From: Sulfolobales archaeon
GTDB taxonomy: Archaea; Thermoproteota; Thermoprotei_A; Sulfolobales; NBVN01
DNA length: 64,000 nucleotides
Direction of reading: 5' to 3'
NCBI GenBank assembly: GCA_038841535.1
Contig: JAWBTQ010000004.1
Coordinates: 64,316 to 128,315 of the forward strand
Shown: positions 2,790 through 9,360 of the stretch, in pieces
Numbering within the stretch: position 1 is the first letter of the stretch
Layout: each line of letters begins with the position of its first letter
Notes under the pieces: generated by a model
Database searches by the model: none
Seen by the model: only the letters and a program-made list of their open reading frames with translations
What the model was told of the DNA's origin: nothing
Translations under genes and position numbers: made by a program

Positions 2790-4088
2790 TTAGCAGACTT
2801 TAAACATCCTCCTAATGTCGCTTAACTTAGTTACTCTCTCTTGGAATATCGCGCTAAATCTCTTTTTGTTACTTAATGGCTGTCCTCCACCCATTAAGCA
2901 GCCACCAGGACATACTTCAAACACTGGTAGACTCTTTTCATTTCGAAAGCTCGTGAGGTTGGCAGGAGGGTATACCTTAGTAACCTCTCTCTGCCTAAGG
3001 ACTACGTAATCGGGGTATTCATCAGTTAGCGTATCGTAGTTAAGTTTCTTGAGAGCTATCTGCGCTTCCCGCGCAGTCAGCACTCTTGGGAGTACTCTTT
3101 TCCAAGATAGGCACTGAGTGATATAGACTACTCCAGGTGGTATGTTTAGCTTGGGCTCGATAGCTTTAACTCCAGGTGCTAAAGTTTGAAGTATCTTTTT
3201 CTCGGCTAGCGACCTAGCTACTATCACTTCCTCAGTTCTTAAATCGACTTCAGCAAGTGGGTCGTATACCGTGACCCTTTCGAATCCGATAGCCTTGAGT
3301 CCGCAAATGACCTTAAGCGGGTCTAGTCCCTCAGCTTCCGATAAAGAAGCTATGACCTCGGGCTCTACGTACGCCTCAGATACGTGTCCTCTTCTAATTT
3401 CAGCGAGTACTTTATCTACATCTAAGCTGTACGTAATGGATCCAGCAGGACAGTATGCAGCACAGAGTCCGCAGTAAACGCAGCCGGACTTTCTGAAGGG
3501 TTCTCCATAAGGTGTTGAGACTAAAGTCTCTATACCTCGGTTAACGTAGTTAAGTACCTTAGCCCCGATCTTCGAGCATATTTCAACGCACCGTCCGCAC
3601 ACAAAGCACTTAAGCTGGTCGAACTTCATTAACTCGTCCTCTATCACTTGACCTCCTCGCTCGATATAACTAAATCTTTTCTCACTAACTATCCACTTAA
3701 GCCCTGCCGCTATCTTCTTAATTAATTCAATAACTTCTGATGGCTGAGCCGGACAGCCTCTTACGTAGCAATCTACCTTAACATGGCTACTCACAGGTTT
3801 TGACAGACCTAGAGCTCCTTGTACGCCTCCTAGACATGCGCAACTACCTAGGGCTACCAAGACCTTTGCTTTGCTTCTAACTCTGTGGAGTAGCTCGAGG
3901 TCTCTCCCGCTCAGTACCGACCCCTCGACTAAGGCTACATCAACGTCATCGACTTCTTTACCTATTCCAGCTAGCGGCCAGTAAGTTAGTGAGATGTCGT
4001 CTCTCTCTAAAAGGTCGGCAAACTCTTTGCTCACCAAGTTGTACTGACAGCCATCGCAGCCAGATAGGGCCACGATCGCAACCTTCAT
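2790..4088 (-). CDS. Chimeric Fe-S subunit: [NiFe] small-subunit N-terminal domain + 2x[4Fe-4S] ferredoxin + degenerate [FeFe]-hydrogenase H-domain
   Basis: SGCDGC/EGSV/GSCACLGG/RGCP, then CFVCGRCVEIC and CVYCGLCAAYCP, then TQCLSWK and FEVCPGGCLMGGGQP (H-cluster P2- and P3-like). Confidence 0.8.
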   Translation of the reverse strand: MKVAIVALSGCDGCQYNLVSKEFADLLERDDISLTYWPLAGIGKEVDDVDVALVEGSVLSGRDLELLHRVRSKAKVLVALGSCACLGGVQGALGLSKPVSSHVKVDCYVRGCPAQPSEVIELIKKIAAGLKWIVSEKRFSYIERGGQVIEDELMKFDQLKCFVCGRCVEICSKIGAKVLNYVNRGIETLVSTPYGEPFRKSGCVYCGLCAAYCPAGSITYSLDVDKVLAEIRRGHVSEAYVEPEVIASLSEAEGLDPLKVICGLKAIGFERVTVYDPLAEVDLRTEEVIVARSLAEKKILQTLAPGVKAIEPKLNIPPGVVYITQCLSWKRVLPRVLTAREAQIALKKLNYDTLTDEYPDYVVLRQREVTKVYPPANLTSFRNEKSLPVFEVCPGGCLMGGGQPLSNKKRFSAIFQERVTKLSDIRRMFKVC

Positions 4089-4095
4089 TAATCTA

Positions 4096-5367
4096 TCACC
4101 TCACTTTAACGACGTGAACGGCACACGGGATACACGGGTCGTAAGCTCTAACGAGCGCCTCTATGTACTTCTGTATAGTTGAATCACTAGCGCCTTCAGC
4201 GAGAAGTTCTTTGGCTATAGAGGTTGCGGACAGCTCTACGTGCTCTGTATTCATGACTGTCGGAGTAGCTATATCAGCCCTAACGACTTTTAGGTCTTTA
4301 TCTACCTCGTAGTAGTGTATCAGTAACCCTCTCGGAGCTTCCACAACACCTAGACCAGCTGACGCACATCTCGTAGTAGCCGGCTGTAGCTCTAGGTCTC
4401 TAGATGAAAGCTCACTGACGTCTTGAACTATGGAGTCGAACATCAGCTTCGATTCTATTGCTTTAGCGTAGATGTTGGAGTAGGGGTTTTCTTTAAGCTT
4501 TTTCTCAAAGCTAGCCACAACACCTCTAGTCTCACCGTCGAGTTCGTTGTACTCTAGTGCACTTAAGAGTCTAGCTCTAGCTCCAACGTAAAACGGGTAG
4601 CCTAAGAATAAGCACTTTTTGCTACTAGAGTACTCAACGTGTAGTTCGTTAAAGAGCTCTCTATAGTTCTCTAAGGTAGTAGCGAACCTTCCAGTAGGTG
4701 TATTTAAGCTGTAGGGCTGGCCTCTTGGGACAGTGGACCTAGTAGACCCCGATAGAGCAACGTACCTAGGTGATGGGTCTCTAGAGTTCGGAAGCTCGAT
4801 GTCTAGCACTCTCTCTGTGAAGCCCTCGAGGTGGGGCCGCACGGATTTTAGTAGCTCAAGTGCTGACATGAATACTCTACGGCTGACGTCGGATAGGAAC
4901 CTCCCCATAGAGTAGTTATTGGGTGACGTAAGTCTGCCGCATACGAGCTTAATGACCTTGTTTAAGTAGGTGTTGATCTCTAGAGACTTCTTCGCGAGCT
5001 GCTCAGAAGCTTCCCTACTTAAGTAGTCCGGTAGCGCTAGAACCCCTAAGTGAATTACGTGGTTCTGAATAAAGCTCAGCTTATTGCATACGTCCCTCAA
5101 TCTGACAGTGTCTTCAGAGGCTTCTACCCCTGCGATTTGCTCAACAGCTAAAGACGCTGCCCAGAAATGGGGGTGGCTACACACTCCGCAGATCCTTGAA
5201 GCTATAGCTGGTACTTCACTAACTTTCCGCCCGATGACTAAGTTTTCGAATCCTCTCAGGCTTGCTACTGAGCTATACGTGACTCTCGCAGAGCCGTCGT
5301 ATATCAACACCTCTACCTTGGACTCACCGGCCACTCTAGGTATTTCCCAGCTTAGTGACTTACTCAT
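4096..5367 (-). CDS. Group 3 [NiFe] hydrogenase large subunit
   Basis: L1 RICGVCSHPH, EAPRGLLIH, L2 DPCIPCAVH followed by a short cleavable tail (VVKVR). Confidence 0.92.
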   Translation of the reverse strand: MSKSLSWEIPRVAGESKVEVLIYDGSARVTYSSVASLRGFENLVIGRKVSEVPAIASRICGVCSHPHFWAASLAVEQIAGVEASEDTVRLRDVCNKLSFIQNHVIHLGVLALPDYLSREASEQLAKKSLEINTYLNKVIKLVCGRLTSPNNYSMGRFLSDVSRRVFMSALELLKSVRPHLEGFTERVLDIELPNSRDPSPRYVALSGSTRSTVPRGQPYSLNTPTGRFATTLENYRELFNELHVEYSSSKKCLFLGYPFYVGARARLLSALEYNELDGETRGVVASFEKKLKENPYSNIYAKAIESKLMFDSIVQDVSELSSRDLELQPATTRCASAGLGVVEAPRGLLIHYYEVDKDLKVVRADIATPTVMNTEHVELSATSIAKELLAEGASDSTIQKYIEALVRAYDPCIPCAVHVVKVR

Positions 5368-6023
5368 GGTTTACCACCCTTCGTGACTACCTCCCTTAGT
5401 CTCTCGGGTAGATTGCTCCAGAAAAACTTCATAGTAGCCTCGATCTCCTTTACGTCTATTCTATACCTCCTGTATAGCTCCACTGTAGCGTCTTCCCAAA
5501 TCCTTGAGTCACTTAAGTACCCCCGACACCCCACACACGGAGCTCCGTAGCGAGGGCATTCAGCAGAACAGCCGGCGACAGTCAGAGGTCCTAAGCACGG
5601 CTCACCCTTTGTGATGAGGCATTCATCCCCTATGAGTGGGCACTCAGAGCACACCGGTAACCCTTCGATACCTAGCTGCTTCGATACTTCGAGTAGGGTA
5701 CAGTTCGACTTCCTTATGCAGCTCCAGCACTTGACTCTATGTGTCGATAGCAGTAGCTCTAGGTTGGTCCTTCTATACCTAGTGAGCTCATCACCTTCCG
5801 TCACTATTTTAGCTTCCTCAGATACCGGGAACCTACATGAGGGAACGACTCTCCCGTTAACTAGGACTACGCATATTCTACAAGTAGCTTCCTCGAAGAG
5901 TCCCTCGAGATAGCAGAGTACGGGGACTCTAAACCCAGCCTTCTCAACAGCATCTATTACGAAAGCGTTTCGTGGTACCTCTACCCGTACGCCATTTACG
6001 TAAACTCTAACCGCGTCCACCAT
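5364..6023 (-). CDS. Chimeric Fe-S subunit: HydA/NuoG/HoxU-type N-terminal [2Fe-2S] + His-ligated [4Fe-4S], fused to [NiFe] small-subunit C-terminal domain
   Basis: PVLC...CRICVV...PSC; HRVKCWSCIRKSNC; then CSECP...CL...PCLGPLTVAGCSAECP...CVGCRG, which aligns with the C-terminus of HydD in this window. Confidence 0.82.
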   Translation of the reverse strand: MVDAVRVYVNGVRVEVPRNAFVIDAVEKAGFRVPVLCYLEGLFEEATCRICVVLVNGRVVPSCRFPVSEEAKIVTEGDELTRYRRTNLELLLSTHRVKCWSCIRKSNCTLLEVSKQLGIEGLPVCSECPLIGDECLITKGEPCLGPLTVAGCSAECPRYGAPCVGCRGYLSDSRIWEDATVELYRRYRIDVKEIEATMKFFWSNLPERLREVVTKGGKP

Positions 6024-6026
6024 CTC

Positions 6027-7847
6027 TCACACCTTCCTAATTGCTCCAAAGGGACACGCGATCAAGCATTGACCGCACTTAGCGCAAAGCTCTTCCCTTA
6101 CTTTATGGACTTCTCCCGGCGAGCCAGATATCGCACCGGTAGGGCAGGTCTTAGCGCACTGCGTGCAACCCCTGCATAGGGCTGGGTCAATAACGTACTT
6201 AACTAACTTAGTGCAGACTTTAGCTGGACACCTACGATTGATTACGTGTTCTACGTACTCGTGTTTAAAGTACCACAGTGTCGACAGTATGGGGTTGGGT
6301 GCCGTTCCCCCGAGTGCGCAGAGGCTTGACTTAGCTATGCTCTCACCGAGCTCTTGAGCGAGCTCTATATCGTCTATCGTTCCAGTACCACTCGTAATCC
6401 TCTCCAGTATGTTGCTGAGCTGCTTCATGCCAACTCTACAAGGGAGGCACTTCCCGCAGGATTCAGCTAGAGTAAAGCCGGTGAAGAACTTTGCTACATC
6501 AACCATGCAGTTACCGTCGTCAATGACTACTAAACCTCCAGACCCCATTATGGCACCGTAGCTCTGCAGGCTCTCGTAGTCCATCTCTAGGTCCATTAGC
6601 TCAGCTGGAATGCATCCCCCACTAGGACCTCCTATCTGTACAGCCTTGACTTTCCTACCCTCCGGAGGTCCTCCCGCTATATCGAAGACTAAGGTCTTTA
6701 TCTTAGTCCCCACAGGCACTTCGTAAACCCCAGTCCTCTTGACGGCCCCAGTAACACAGAACATCTTAGTTCCTTTCGACTTGTCCGTTCCGTACTTAGT
6801 GAACTCGGCTACACCACTCTGGAATATCGTAGCAACGTGAGCAAGAGTCTCCACGTTGTTTATGACTGTTGGTTTTCCCCGCAGTCCACTAGTCGCAGGA
6901 TAGGGAGGCCTCTGCCTCGGTCTAGAGCGGCCCTCTATAGCTGCTATTAGTGCTGTTTCTTCTCCACACACGAACGCACCCGCACTCCTATAGACTTCTA
7001 CGTCGAAGTCGAACCCGGAGCCCAGGATGTTCTTCCCCAGGAACCCCGCTCTTCTTGCGTCGTTGACTGCTTTCTCTAGTCTTTCAGCCATAAGGGGTTT
7101 CTCGGCTCTAACGAAAATAAACCCTTTAGTCGCCCCAATAGCGTAGCCGGCGATTATGAGCCCCTCTAGAACTCTATGGGGGTCTGATTCAGCGAGGAGC
7201 CTGTTCATGAAGGCACCAGGGTCTCCTTCGTCACCGTTGCATATTACGTACTTAACGTCGCTCTTTTGTTCGTACGCTACCTTCCACTTAAACCAGGTCG
7301 GAAAGCCAGCTCCTCCTCTTCCTCTAAGACCGGAAGCCTTAACTTCCTCTATTACTTTCTCTCTACTCATACTCAAAGCTCTCTTAAGTCCCGAGTACCC
7401 ACCGGTCTCTACATAGTCTTCGATGGACTCAGGGTTTATTAAGCCGCAGTTTCTGGAAACGTACCTCGTCTGAAGTCTCCAGTAGTCTAGTTCGTCTAGC
7501 GACGGCGGGTCTCTAGAGTCTGTTTTGAATCTTACCGCAGTAGCTCCAGAGAGGTCTCCCTCTAAATACCTCTTCAAGATCTGTGGGACTTGGTCGGGCT
7601 TTACGTTTCCGTATAGTGCCGGAGGCTGTCCTTCTTTAGCTACCTCGATCCAGGGATCCATAAAGCAGAGACCGGTACACCCTACTGTATACACTTCGGC
7701 GTCTAGCTTTAGCTCTTCGACAGCTCTGCGAACTCTTCTATATACTTCTTCAGCACCTGCAGCAAGAGTACAGCTAGCTATCGGCACCCGTATTCTAAAG
7801 CCTTTACTACCGTACAGTATCTTCCTCAGAGTAGCCTGCGGCAGCAA
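6027..7847 (-). CDS. NuoF/HydB (BfuB)-like FMN/NAD(P)H-binding subunit with thioredoxin-like N-domain and C-terminal 2x[4Fe-4S]
   Basis: GLRGRGGAGFP, NGDEGDPGAFM, GAFVCGEETAL, GGPSGG, ESCGKCLPCR, EH..RRCPAKVC and two CxxCxxCxxxCP motifs. Confidence 0.93.
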   Translation of the reverse strand: MLPQATLRKILYGSKGFRIRVPIASCTLAAGAEEVYRRVRRAVEELKLDAEVYTVGCTGLCFMDPWIEVAKEGQPPALYGNVKPDQVPQILKRYLEGDLSGATAVRFKTDSRDPPSLDELDYWRLQTRYVSRNCGLINPESIEDYVETGGYSGLKRALSMSREKVIEEVKASGLRGRGGAGFPTWFKWKVAYEQKSDVKYVICNGDEGDPGAFMNRLLAESDPHRVLEGLIIAGYAIGATKGFIFVRAEKPLMAERLEKAVNDARRAGFLGKNILGSGFDFDVEVYRSAGAFVCGEETALIAAIEGRSRPRQRPPYPATSGLRGKPTVINNVETLAHVATIFQSGVAEFTKYGTDKSKGTKMFCVTGAVKRTGVYEVPVGTKIKTLVFDIAGGPPEGRKVKAVQIGGPSGGCIPAELMDLEMDYESLQSYGAIMGSGGLVVIDDGNCMVDVAKFFTGFTLAESCGKCLPCRVGMKQLSNILERITSGTGTIDDIELAQELGESIAKSSLCALGGTAPNPILSTLWYFKHEYVEHVINRRCPAKVCTKLVKYVIDPALCRGCTQCAKTCPTGAISGSPGEVHKVREELCAKCGQCLIACPFGAIRKV

Positions 7848-8355
7848 TACTGCCGAACCCCGCGGTACTAGCCGCTCTAGACTTGTAGCTTAAGATAAGC
7901 CTCCTACTCTCAGTCGGTGTGAGCTTACCGTGAACGTATCTCTCGGAGCCATCTGAAGAGACAACCATGGCAACCGGGGCTAGGCTACAGCAACCGAAGC
8001 ACCTCGCCTTTTCGATAGTGAGAGAGCCGTCCTCCGTCGTAGTTCCTCCGTCATTAAGTCCGACTGCTCTCCTCATCGCTTCGTAAACCTCTGAAGAACC
8101 CCTCAAGTAGCACGCTGTACCAAAGCATACGTATGCTACGTACTTACCCACCGGTTCGAGCCTGAACTGGTGGTAGAAAGTAGCTACGTTGAGGACTTCA
8201 GCGAGAGACACTCCTAAGCGCCTAGATACCTCTTCGAGGCTTTCTCTAGGTAAGTACCCAAACGTTCTTTGAACTTCTTGAAGAATATTGATCAGCTTAC
8301 TTCTATCCGTACCGATCCTCGAAACTACGCTCTCAACGAATCCTCTAGGATCCAC
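7807..8355 (-). CDS. NuoE/HydC (BfuC)-like [2Fe-2S] subunit
   Basis: ATFYHQF, CFGTAC and CFGCCSLAP motifs. Confidence 0.92.
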   Translation of the reverse strand: MDPRGFVESVVSRIGTDRSKLINILQEVQRTFGYLPRESLEEVSRRLGVSLAEVLNVATFYHQFRLEPVGKYVAYVCFGTACYLRGSSEVYEAMRRAVGLNDGGTTTEDGSLTIEKARCFGCCSLAPVAMVVSSDGSERYVHGKLTPTESRRLILSYKSRAASTAGFGSIAAAGYSEEDTVR

Positions 8356-8443
8356 TCGCCCCCTTCAACTAGATCTTCGACCGTTGTTTAAAGCGAGGGT
8401 TAATTTATGGTAATTAACGAGTAAGTATTGTAAGTAAGTATAA

Positions 8444-9340
8444 CTATACCTTGGGGAAGAAGTACTTGCACCTACACGCCTTATTTCTAACACACCTTCC
8501 TAAGACTACCTCCGATATCCTAGAGGTTAAGTACTTGATGTTTCTACAGATTTCGTTTCGACACTCTGTTTCTCCCAACAAGCTGAGGACCTTGATCACG
8601 CTGTTGACAGCTGTTTCAACGTCTTGAACTAGGGTAGCACTTATAGCCGCTCTCGACAGCTCTAGGACTCTCGACAGCTCTACGTCTTCGCTTAGCTTAG
8701 GTTGCTCGACTCCTACTAAGATGTCGAAGAGCTCCTTGATGTACTCAATTGATACGGCTAGGTCTAGAGCTTCGTAGGGGTCTATAGAGCCGTCGGCAAC
8801 ACCCTGCTTTATGGTTCTAAGGAAGTACAGGTACTTTCTGTAGAACTCTCTGTATGTAGCGGGAGTAGAGGGGTTTCTCTCTTCAACGCAGTCTATGAGC
8901 TTGCTAGAGGTAGCTTCGATGGTTTTTAAGAGCGAGAGGAGGTCTGTCTTTACGTCAGAAAAAACTAGTTCGTGGATATTCGAACCCGGGTTAGCCATGA
9001 GGACGAAGCTCGTTACATAGTCCTTAAGGCTCTCAGAGAGCTCTAGAGACTGCTCATAGCTCGACTTTATCTTAACTCTCGTTACTCCCTCTACGTAGGA
9101 GGCAACTAGCTTCCTAATTGCTAGGTCGCTAGACTCGTACTCTATTAAGACGTTGACTTCCTCGCTTTGCTCACTACTCGAAGATGGAACTACAGTTATC
9201 TTAGAGCCATCGAAGTAGAGGCTAACTCTATCTCCAGGTTTAATACCTAGAGCGTCAGCCCACCTCTTCGGCACTATTATAGATAGAGAACCCTTACCAA
9301 CCACGTTCACTTTCTTGACTAAGCGCTCAGACATCTGCAC
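8444..9340 (-). CDS. AbrB/SpoVT-domain, PhoU-like transcriptional regulator with Cys-rich tail
   Basis: N-terminal GKGSLSIIVPKRWA..LGIKPGD (AbrB) and RKLVASYVEG typical of archaeal AbrB-PhoU regulators; helical C-terminal part. Confidence 0.7.
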   Translation of the reverse strand: MQMSERLVKKVNVVGKGSLSIIVPKRWADALGIKPGDRVSLYFDGSKITVVPSSSSEQSEEVNVLIEYESSDLAIRKLVASYVEGVTRVKIKSSYEQSLELSESLKDYVTSFVLMANPGSNIHELVFSDVKTDLLSLLKTIEATSSKLIDCVEERNPSTPATYREFYRKYLYFLRTIKQGVADGSIDPYEALDLAVSIEYIKELFDILVGVEQPKLSEDVELSRVLELSRAAISATLVQDVETAVNSVIKVLSLLGETECRNEICRNIKYLTSRISEVVLGRCVRNKACRCKYFFPKV

Positions 9341-9360
9341 TCCGAGATTACGTGTCTTAA

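Follow-up and report, generated by a model that had tools for sequence, protein, structure and literature searches.

A shortened [FeFe]-hydrogenase H-domain fused to a [NiFe] small-subunit domain in a Sulfolobales archaeon: a probable non-catalytic relic within a Bfu-type [NiFe] hydrogenase

The stretch of DNA considered here (the window: 64,000 nucleotides of a Sulfolobales archaeon, contig JAWBTQ010000004.1 of assembly GCA_038841535.1, positions 64,316 to 128,315) carries on its minus strand a hydrogenase gene cluster whose last gene, hyhS-hydA (2790..4088), is the subject of this report. Identified from its open reading frame (ORF), Pfam, NCBIfam and PDB matches and an AF2 model, this gene encodes a fusion protein of 432 amino acids (aa) in three parts. 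Residues 1–135 (3684..4088, minus strand) form a [NiFe] small-subunit N-domain with the proximal-cluster Cys C11, C14, C83 and C112: residues 11–125 match Pfam Oxidored_q6, the [NiFe] small-subunit/NuoB family, with E 3.5e-22, and in VIA comparisons residues 1–162 of the model reach Z 22.1 with MvhG, 21.8 with the delta subunit of P. furiosus SHI and 20.5 with A. mobile HydS. Residues 146–224 (3417..3653, minus strand) form a 2x[4Fe-4S] F-domain with eight Cys, equivalent to FS4A/FS4B (A4/A2) of HydA by alignment to HydA 137–210; the Pfam Fer4 families place this ferredoxin domain at residues 150–225. The remaining 208 residues, 225–432 (2793..3416, minus strand), were recognised from the model and from VIA as a shortened [FeFe]-hydrogenase H-domain, hereafter the relic. 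A preliminary description, drawn from the letters alone, had proposed precisely this fusion of an H-domain relic with a NiFe small-subunit domain, and both halves of the proposal hold.

The fold of the relic is the first line of evidence. The AF2 model of the full protein has a mean pLDDT of 86.8; its best Foldseek matches are TmHydA, TkHydA and CpI (E 5e-17 to 1e-13), and VIA aligns model residues 89–432 with T. maritima HydA (TmHydA) at Z 24.8 and an rmsd of 2.9 Å over 289 residues, and the model with CpI at a Z of about 24. When residues 146–432 were modelled alone (pLDDT 84.8) and compared by VIA with 48,161 PDB representatives, only four, every one an [FeFe] hydrogenase, reached Z>=8: CbA5H (19.8), TkHydA (17.8), HDCR HydA2 (16.9) and CrHydA1 (13.4). 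The fifth-best match, at Z 5.7, covers the ferredoxin part alone. A C-terminal fold unlike the H-domain, which the preliminary description had named as an outcome that would refute it, is not what these comparisons show.

Sequence searches lead to the same family. The NCBIfam models for [FeFe] hydrogenase group A6 and group A cover residues 150–276, extending beyond the ferredoxin domain; the fusion sequence matches T. kivui HydA (8a6t_A) at residues 138–282 and 392–414 (E 2.6e-24), and A. woodii HydA at residues 143–336 in a single-sequence search of solved structures. A profile of 35 family members including one Cys-type row (A1) gave with HydA one uninterrupted alignment over HydA residues 118–516 (E 6e-44), whereas a profile of members with Ser at the P1 ligand position only (Ser type; A2), searched against the PDB, aligned HydA in three pieces that left P1 and P2 uncovered; for this reason the column mapping used below was taken from A1 and from a MAFFT alignment with bacterial HydA of fetched loci. 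The Pfam family PF02906 (Fe_hyd_lg_C) is not reached by the fusion protein at E<=0.01 and has no match in a six-frame search of the window's genome; precomputed PF02906 assignments exist for two of the 34 fusion clusters (413–571 aa) retrieved by a word-indexed search. In the ESM Atlas features, which we use as a lead only, the top clusters are all Fe_hyd_lg_C (score 0.89). The relic alone, searched against 1.84 billion representatives, gave 17 matches at E<=0.001, those full-length being 430–470 aa, the size of the fusion family, besides three odd multi-stretch matches (2860, 559 and 924 aa); canonical HydA was not reached in this search, which we take as a measure of divergence only. Fold comparison, profile alignment and conservation in 101 relatives all agree, so that the observation of an H-domain is real and far beyond chance: the C-terminal 208 residues have the [FeFe]-hydrogenase H-domain fold.

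What this H-domain has lost is best seen motif by motif, with P1, P2 and P3 worded as in the preliminary description (TSCCPxW, MPCxxKxxE and ExMxCxxGCxxGGGxP). The P1 equivalent is VARSLAEK (3198..3221, minus strand), placed by translation and column mapping: profile and MAFFT alignments both put S293 at the column of the ligand Cys and R292 at that of the relay Cys, and three residues after S293 stands a clade-specific Glu, E296. In the P2 equivalent, TQCLSWK (3099..3119, minus strand), C326 is the P2 Cys, while Met, Pro and Lys of MPCxxK are changed to T, Q and W, with W329 in the Lys column. The P3 equivalent VFEVCPGGCLMGGGQP (2877..2924, minus strand) keeps more: FEVCPGGCLMGGGQP retains both P3 Cys (C393 and C397) and GGGQP, with E391 in the column that is Met in HydA. 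Compared with the canonical motifs, P1 has thus neither Cys, P2 has its Cys only, and P3 has both Cys and GGGQP but neither the E nor the M. In addition, the relic lacks two segments that bacterial HydA possess and that the Cys-bearing archaeal fusions described below retain in part: one between P1 and P2 with "SPxQ" and one between P2 and P3 with "GVTGGVMEAALR". Both presumably line the [2Fe] subsite. Among 101 Ser-type proteins the H-region has a median length of 212 aa; for 15 bacterial HydA, whose extra C-terminal tails are included, the median is 371 aa.

Much of the preliminary reading of these motifs survives: the P2-like TQCLSWK, the Cys-free ARSLAEK in place of P1 and the marked shortening of the domain are all borne out. 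Its near-perfect P3 stands for CxxGCxxGGGQP and fails at the E and M of ExMxC, and its three remaining Cys are right as the number conserved across relatives and wrong for the window's protein itself, whose relic holds five (262, 326, 393, 397 and 432). The four Cys that ligate an H-cluster are not all present, the P1 ligand being Ser293 here and Ser in 101 of 101 clade members.

The consequence of losing this ligand has been measured in CrHydA1, where the corresponding residue is C115 (Kertess 2017, PMC5855289). The C115S variant shows low [4Fe-4S] occupancy, no [2Fe] insertion and an activity below 1; most of the [4Fe-4S] cluster is lost in all three variants, C115S, C115D and C115A, none of which takes up [2Fe] or shows activity. 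The earlier claim that the relic has no active H-cluster is thereby supported, as its lost P1 Cys fits these data.

The Ser-type site is no local accident but belongs to a whole clade. A genome scan yielded 61 archaeal loci, all from metagenome-assembled genomes, labelled Sulfolobales/Desulfurococcales, Thermofilaceae, Bathyarchaeia, Wolframiiraptor, one Archaeoglobales and others. In the 101 full-length Ser-type proteins on which all conservation counts are based, S293, E296 and C326 are invariant (101/101 each), C393 and C397 are each found in 100, T338 in 100 and E341 in 99. The residue at position 329 varies (W in 48, R in 48, K in 5), and the P3 loop GGGQP is kept to a large extent (the three Gly in 83–100, Q in 91, P in 86). 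No further Cys column of the relic is conserved among these relatives, hence there is no substitute P1 Cys elsewhere. P1 Cys aligning at another place, in a domain that matures into an active site, would have refuted the preliminary description by its own terms, and this result is in its favour. The other two domains keep all of their 12 Cys in 99–101 of the 101: the eight of the F-domain in all, and C11, C14, C83 and C112 of the proximal cluster, which are invariant in profile A1, in 99–101.

Of the three domains, the relic shows the lowest overall conservation, with a mean pairwise identity of 0.33 against 0.43 and 0.50 for the two others. This agrees with the view that the relic is metal-free and serves as a scaffold only, holding the F-domain or forming a subunit or dimer interface, as the A4/A5 region does in A. 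mobile (Feng 2022, PMC8880783); the loss of most of the [4Fe-4S] cluster in the CrHydA1 C115 variants (Kertess 2017) points in the same direction. However, a metal-free relic is hard to reconcile with three Cys kept at the exact ligand columns in 100–101 of 101 proteins while the domain averages 33% identity, and the glycines of the cluster loop (G396 and G400–402) are kept as well, so that we regard a mere scaffold as unlikely. Selection was estimated in nine pairs of close relatives besides the pair that includes the window; because of saturation, no figure was retained for L030/L041 in any domain, nor for L035/L043 in the relic. In the seven unsaturated pairs dN/dS of the relic is 0.08–0.25, and in eight pairs each it is 0.05–0.20 for the N-domain and 0.025–0.076 for the F-domain. 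The relic is, on these sequence comparisons, under purifying selection and about as constrained as the small-subunit domain.

The genes next to hyhS-hydA indicate in what kind of enzyme the relic is lodged. Their order is hydC-hydB-hydD-hyhL-hyhS/hydA, the fusion gene being last. The gene hyhL (4096..5367, minus strand) encodes a [NiFe] large subunit of 423 aa with both CxxC motifs (RICGVCSHPH and DPCIPCAVH; PF00374 E 4.8e-29, and sulfhydrogenase alpha models). With the proximal-cluster Cys of the fusion protein conserved as described, the adjacent hyhL is its cognate large subunit. The product of hydD (5364..6023, minus strand; 219 aa; Pfam Fer2_4 and NADH-G_4Fe-4S_3) is itself composite: it joins a HydA/NuoG N-part, with a [2Fe-2S] and a NuoG-type [4Fe-4S] cluster, to the C-terminal half, with two clusters, of a small subunit of group 3. 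Its residues 7–127 resemble A. woodii HydA 6–128, and its residues 122–215 resemble P. furiosus SHI delta 161–254 (E 4.7e-20). The two genes are thus products of a reciprocal swap: HydD unites the N-terminal ~125 residues of HydA with the C-half of the small subunit, the fusion protein unites the N-half of the small subunit with the rest of HydA, and the cross-fused genes flank hyhL. Further upstream, hydB (6027..7847, minus strand) encodes a Bfu-type flavoprotein of 606 aa with N- and C-terminal iron-sulphur (FeS) extensions, matched end to end: its residues 25–606 align with residues 15–597 of A. mobile NiFe-HydB (7t2r_B; E 2e-190), and NfnB and T. maritima HydB also match. Lastly, hydC (7807..8355, minus strand; 182 aa) encodes a NuoE/HoxE-like [2Fe-2S] subunit of thioredoxin fold (PF01257 E 6.7e-42, and HoxE and NuoE models). 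The called start of hydB (TTG, 7847) overlaps the end of hydC by 41 bases (7807–7847), and the true start may lie further in. All four partner genes stand upstream on the same strand in 45 of the 61 related loci, and 11 others have too little upstream DNA.

As to maturation, HypD and HypF are present in the window's genome, which is 83.8% complete. The search of this genome for HydE, HydF and HydG that the preliminary description had suggested, having noticed none of them in the window, found neither HydG nor HydE, and for HydF only sub-cutoff GTPase matches; in five other holders of the fusion (92–99% complete) HydG was found in none, nor HydE over the cut-off. This absence is weak evidence, because only five of 130 archaeal genomes with [FeFe] hydrogenases possess a full maturase set (Greening et al., Cell 2024, PMC11216029).

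Other features of the neighbourhood deserve mention. Immediately downstream of hyhS-hydA, also on the minus strand, stands another complete set of soluble hydrogenase genes, with sulfhydrogenase-like beta (1588–2676), gamma (774–1601) and delta (7–777) subunits, its 451-aa [NiFe] large subunit being encoded just outside the window (G000:C4:63070-64209); the genome has five [NiFe] large-subunit-like loci overall, and the pairing of two operons recurs in several related loci (e.g. L011, L031, L038, L042 and L058). On the other side, a gene at 8444–9340 (minus strand) adjoins the operon and encodes a 298-aa protein with an N-terminal AbrB/MazE-type domain (PF04014, E 7.7e-10). Proteins 50–97% identical to it are encoded immediately upstream of hydC in the nearest relatives (L011–L014, L021, L022, L025, L028 and L067), and weaker homologues (25–32%) upstream or downstream in others; it is a candidate regulator of the operon. 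DNA near-identical to the window occurs in hot-spring metagenome runs of several studies, and in one metatranscriptome run (X20) contigs of a relative ~95% alike span 2842–3957 and 4514–9343, for which DNA carry-over is possible. Z. tikiterensis has been reported with a "3A" cluster that includes an F420-hydrogenase subunit homologue and that may correspond to this operon.

The relatives of the Ser type give some indication of how it arose. A search with a relative of 571 aa (P0035) brought up 110 proteins that keep the ligand Cys and have Trp at the relay position (the "SWC" type), mostly from records named Thermoplasmata or Thermoplasmatota. Two of them, P0152 (859 aa) and P0156 (869 aa, labelled Planctomycetota by its source), extend the small-subunit/H-domain fusion by response-regulator and histidine-kinase ATPase domains (PF00072 and PF02518), which suggests that some bacteria use the hybrid module for sensing. 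Among 401 sampled genomes of the window's phylum, 29 had a match at E<=1e-25 (17 of the 334 of high quality); this sample also held two Cys-Cys forms, one Cys-Ser form and group G-like proteins. The Cys-Cys forms (L110 and L111, from G185 and G150) read IIPCCYSAKK, with both P1 Cys kept in a compact H-domain, and the Cys-Ser form (L115, from G129) reads LIPCSEAAKK, Cys then Ser, with no Glu at +3.

Trees were built on the F and H regions by an IQ-TREE quick search, with SH-aLRT support only and an assumed root. In the first one, made from rows thinned to at most 62% identity out of 228 and with six bacterial HydA as outgroup, the Ser type (38 rows, SH-aLRT 100) and the SWC type (35 rows, 99) each fall on one side of a branch. 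In the second one, to which the Cys-Cys, Cys-Ser and G-like rows were added, the Ser clade (27 rows, support 99) lies within a clade of 30 rows together with the two Cys-Cys rows and the Cys-Ser row (SH-aLRT 99); the node uniting the Cys-Ser row with the Ser clade is unsupported (10). Forcing the Ser and SWC types together without the Cys-Cys and Cys-Ser rows costs 23.2 log-likelihood units and is rejected (p-AU 0.013, for a group named after the tree had been seen). As every lineage around the Ser clade carries Cys at that column, Ser at the P1 position is most simply a derived loss of Cys.

We favour, with a probability of roughly 0.6, the reading that the H-domain of the fusion protein is a non-catalytic relic, which probably carries a single cubane on a dead-end side arm within a Bfu-type [NiFe] hydrogenase that turns over H2 at HyhL. 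The fusion protein would be the HyhS-HydA subunit of a cytoplasmic [NiFe] hydrogenase that has five subunits and a scaffold of the HydABC kind (Bfu-type, probably electron-bifurcating). With the P1 ligand Cys, the relay Cys, the CN-binding Lys and the P3 Met replaced and the loops of the [2Fe] site deleted, the relic should be unable to hold an H-cluster, and H2 would therefore be turned over at the [NiFe] site of HyhL. By homology, electrons would pass from this site to the proximal cluster in the N-domain of the fusion, then to the two small-subunit-type clusters in the C-half of HydD, and onward through the cluster of the HydD N-half, the central F-cluster of the fusion and the HydD [2Fe-2S] cluster to the [4Fe-4S] and flavin mononucleotide (FMN) of HydB. 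The relic itself would bind one cubane, [4Fe-4S] or [3Fe-4S], on C326, C393 and C397, possibly with S293 or E296 as a fourth, oxygen ligand. This cluster would end the F-cluster arm, at the place of the dead-end A4/A5 branch of A. mobile, and would serve stability or assembly, possibly electron storage, rather than catalysis. The idea of the preliminary description that the relic may be a [4Fe-4S] relay or a structural site is in this respect plausible.

A cubane in the relic could also be more than a dead end. The deletion of the pocket-lining segments might expose it at the surface, where it would exchange electrons with ferredoxin or another carrier, and the conservation of the cluster ligands and the purifying selection speak for such an electron port. 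On the other hand no partner or docking surface has been identified, and in the solved Bfu enzymes it is a [4Fe-4S] cluster in HydB that reduces ferredoxin (Feng et al. 2022, PMC8880783); we consider this role rather unlikely.

Several observations weigh against a passive relic, and some of them would suit an opposite explanation, namely that it is a working [FeFe]-type catalytic site, with an H-cluster or a related cofactor held by Ser/Glu instead of Cys and matured by an unknown archaeal route, in an enzyme with two H2 sites. The strong conservation of the Ser, the Glu and the three Cys means that something specific happens at the site, whose role might exceed that of a passive cluster; neither Ser nor Glu varies, selection is purifying, and the bridging C397 (100/101) and GGGQP are kept. 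Table S2 of Greening et al. (2024) files Ser-motif proteins of Zestosphaera, DTCV01, Thermofilaceae B17-G15 and Bathyarchaeia B24 as group F [FeFe] hydrogenases (HydA), and the same authors argue that H-clusters may be matured without HydEFG in archaea, most archaea with active [FeFe] enzymes lacking these maturases. About 20% of putative hydrogenase sequences have Ser at the C115 position (Kertess 2017). In five of the 61 loci, all labelled Bathyarchaeia or Bathyarchaeota (L050, L059, L065, L066 and L070), hydC-hydB-hydD is followed by the fusion gene with no hyhL between, the Cys of the N-domain being kept. At L050 an HdrA/MvhD-like fusion, a separate small subunit and a large subunit are encoded downstream. 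At L065 the three ORFs scanned in 5.5 kb downstream include no [NiFe] large subunit; tRNA-synthetase genes alone occur in that stretch, and the relic would be the only hydrogenase-like site there.

Three further points tell against our reading from other sides. The geometry of S293, E296, C326, C393 and C397 comes from alignment only. Between the window and its 94%-identical relative L011, dN/dS is 0.10 for the N-domain, 0.05 for the F-domain and 0.42 for the relic, the last figure resting on small counts (20 non-synonymous and 14 synonymous changes) and hinting at relaxed constraint. Lastly, of the structural alignments that the preliminary description had proposed, those with TmHydA and CpI succeeded, and that with A. 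mobile HydA did not extend to the relic: the C-terminal domain of A. mobile HydA stayed unaligned, the match being confined to the F-domain by fold (Z 4.2) and to profile positions 142–227 by sequence.

A working site in the relic nevertheless meets serious obstacles. All three CrHydA1 exchanges at C115, to Ser, Asp and Ala, abolish [2Fe] insertion and activity (Kertess 2017); the relay Cys, the P2 Lys and the P2 and P3 Met are replaced as well, two pocket-forming segments are deleted, and PF02906 is not reached. Moreover, activity was tested for Cys-bearing SWC-type members only (Greening 2024). We thus hold catalysis at this site to be very improbable, and return to the non-catalytic relic with its probable single cubane.

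Which residues would hold this cubane on the fourth side is a separate question. Their strict conservation raises the possibility that Ser293 and Glu296 are ligands of a naturally oxygen-coordinated cubane (three Cys plus Ser/Glu) that descends from the [4Fe-4S]H site; we advance this as a tentative idea, itself more doubtful than not. According to Kertess (2017), no [4Fe-4S] cluster is known to be ligated by Ser in nature. Were the idea true, the living series from Cys-Cys through Cys-Ser to x-Ser...Glu would record the stepwise change of an H-cluster site into a tuned site of electron transfer or storage. Apart from this, 12 of the 101 Ser-type proteins (e.g. P0031, L030 and L035) have a CxxC in the helix after P3, at columns 414 and 417, which the window's protein lacks and which could supply an alternative fourth ligand in that subclade.

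The nearest known system is the group F [FeFe]/3f [NiFe] hybrid hydrogenase, an architecture described from 21 genomes including the class Thermoproteia (Greening et al. 2024, PMC11216029). The remark in the preliminary description that [FeFe]-derived domains are unusual in Crenarchaeota is accordingly out of date. The hybrids share with the window the order of domains (small-subunit domain, F-clusters, H-domain), the five-gene cluster and the phylum. Their description gives them two H2 sites, seemingly redundant, and the H-domain of group F was called "true". In the modelled Thermoplasmatota enzyme conserved Cys ligands are reported; activity was assayed for SWC-type proteins of Thermoplasmata SG8-5 (Th1 and Th2), one of the two turning over H2 with the [2Fe]adt mimic. 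The modelled and assayed enzymes (Thermoplasmata UBA147/SG8-5) keep the P1 Cys, in SWC, and are described as having all H-cluster ligands, whereas the window's clade has Ser and misses two pocket segments. Of the 16 group F rows in parts 7–9 of Table S2, nine are of the Ser type, six SWC and one Cys-Cys. In the literature searched, which for Greening et al. 2024 comprised text passages and parts 7–9 of Table S2, we found no remark on a subgroup without the P1 Cys. While the architecture is already published, the loss of an H-cluster ligand and of the [2Fe] pocket throughout this clade, which is centred on Thermoproteota and has members that were counted among [FeFe] hydrogenases, together with a conserved site of three Cys and Ser/Glu, appears to have gone unremarked.

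If the members from Thermoproteota and Bathyarchaeia B24 indeed have no competent H-cluster, a sizeable share of group F would be one-site [NiFe] enzymes: nine of the 16 table rows examined and all 61 archaeal loci of the genome scan. The number of archaeal [FeFe] hydrogenases would then be overestimated where it is counted from genes, and the puzzle of two redundant H2 sites would be confined to the Cys-bearing lineages. Besides, the Ser clade is a natural and strongly conserved experiment on an H-domain after its life as a hydrogenase, with living Cys-Cys and Cys-Ser intermediates, and it offers hyperthermophile Bfu-type [NiFe] hydrogenases for structural work.

The second comparison is with NiFe-HydABCSL of A. 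mobile (PDB 7T2R), in which the same HydB/HydC/HydA-type scaffold carries a [NiFe] module, and with which the FMN site and FeS domains of HydB and the NuoE-like HydC are shared. Its electron path runs FMN-B1-A1-A2-A3-S1-[NiFe]; the A4/A5 arm, which occupies the place of the H-cluster in [FeFe] enzymes, is a dead end at the dimer interface, "most likely nonfunctional" and judged structural, in a HydA without H-cluster motif (Feng et al. 2022, PMC8880783). In A. mobile a single chain of 692 aa makes up HydA, and HydS carries one cluster. In the window's enzyme both HydA, with the break at about residue 125, and the small subunit are divided between two genes, each of which joins a part of one to a part of the other. 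Since the C-terminal domain of A. mobile HydA did not align with the relic (a non-match which does not prove that the folds differ), the analogy between the two dead ends is positional and does not imply homology.

The eukaryotic proteins of the Nar1/NARF type are likewise descendants of the H-domain with plain FeS clusters and no [2Fe] subsite. Nar1, in contrast to the relic, is a stand-alone protein of cytosolic FeS assembly that has kept four Cys at the site. Closest at the level of the single residue are the CrHydA1 variants C115S, C115D and C115A, altered at the same P1 ligand position beside the relay Cys. These, however, are engineered single changes in a full H-domain, while in the window's clade the Ser is natural and clade-wide and goes together with loop deletions and with a Glu, likewise invariant, at the third position after it; the Ser-type site may have been re-adapted.

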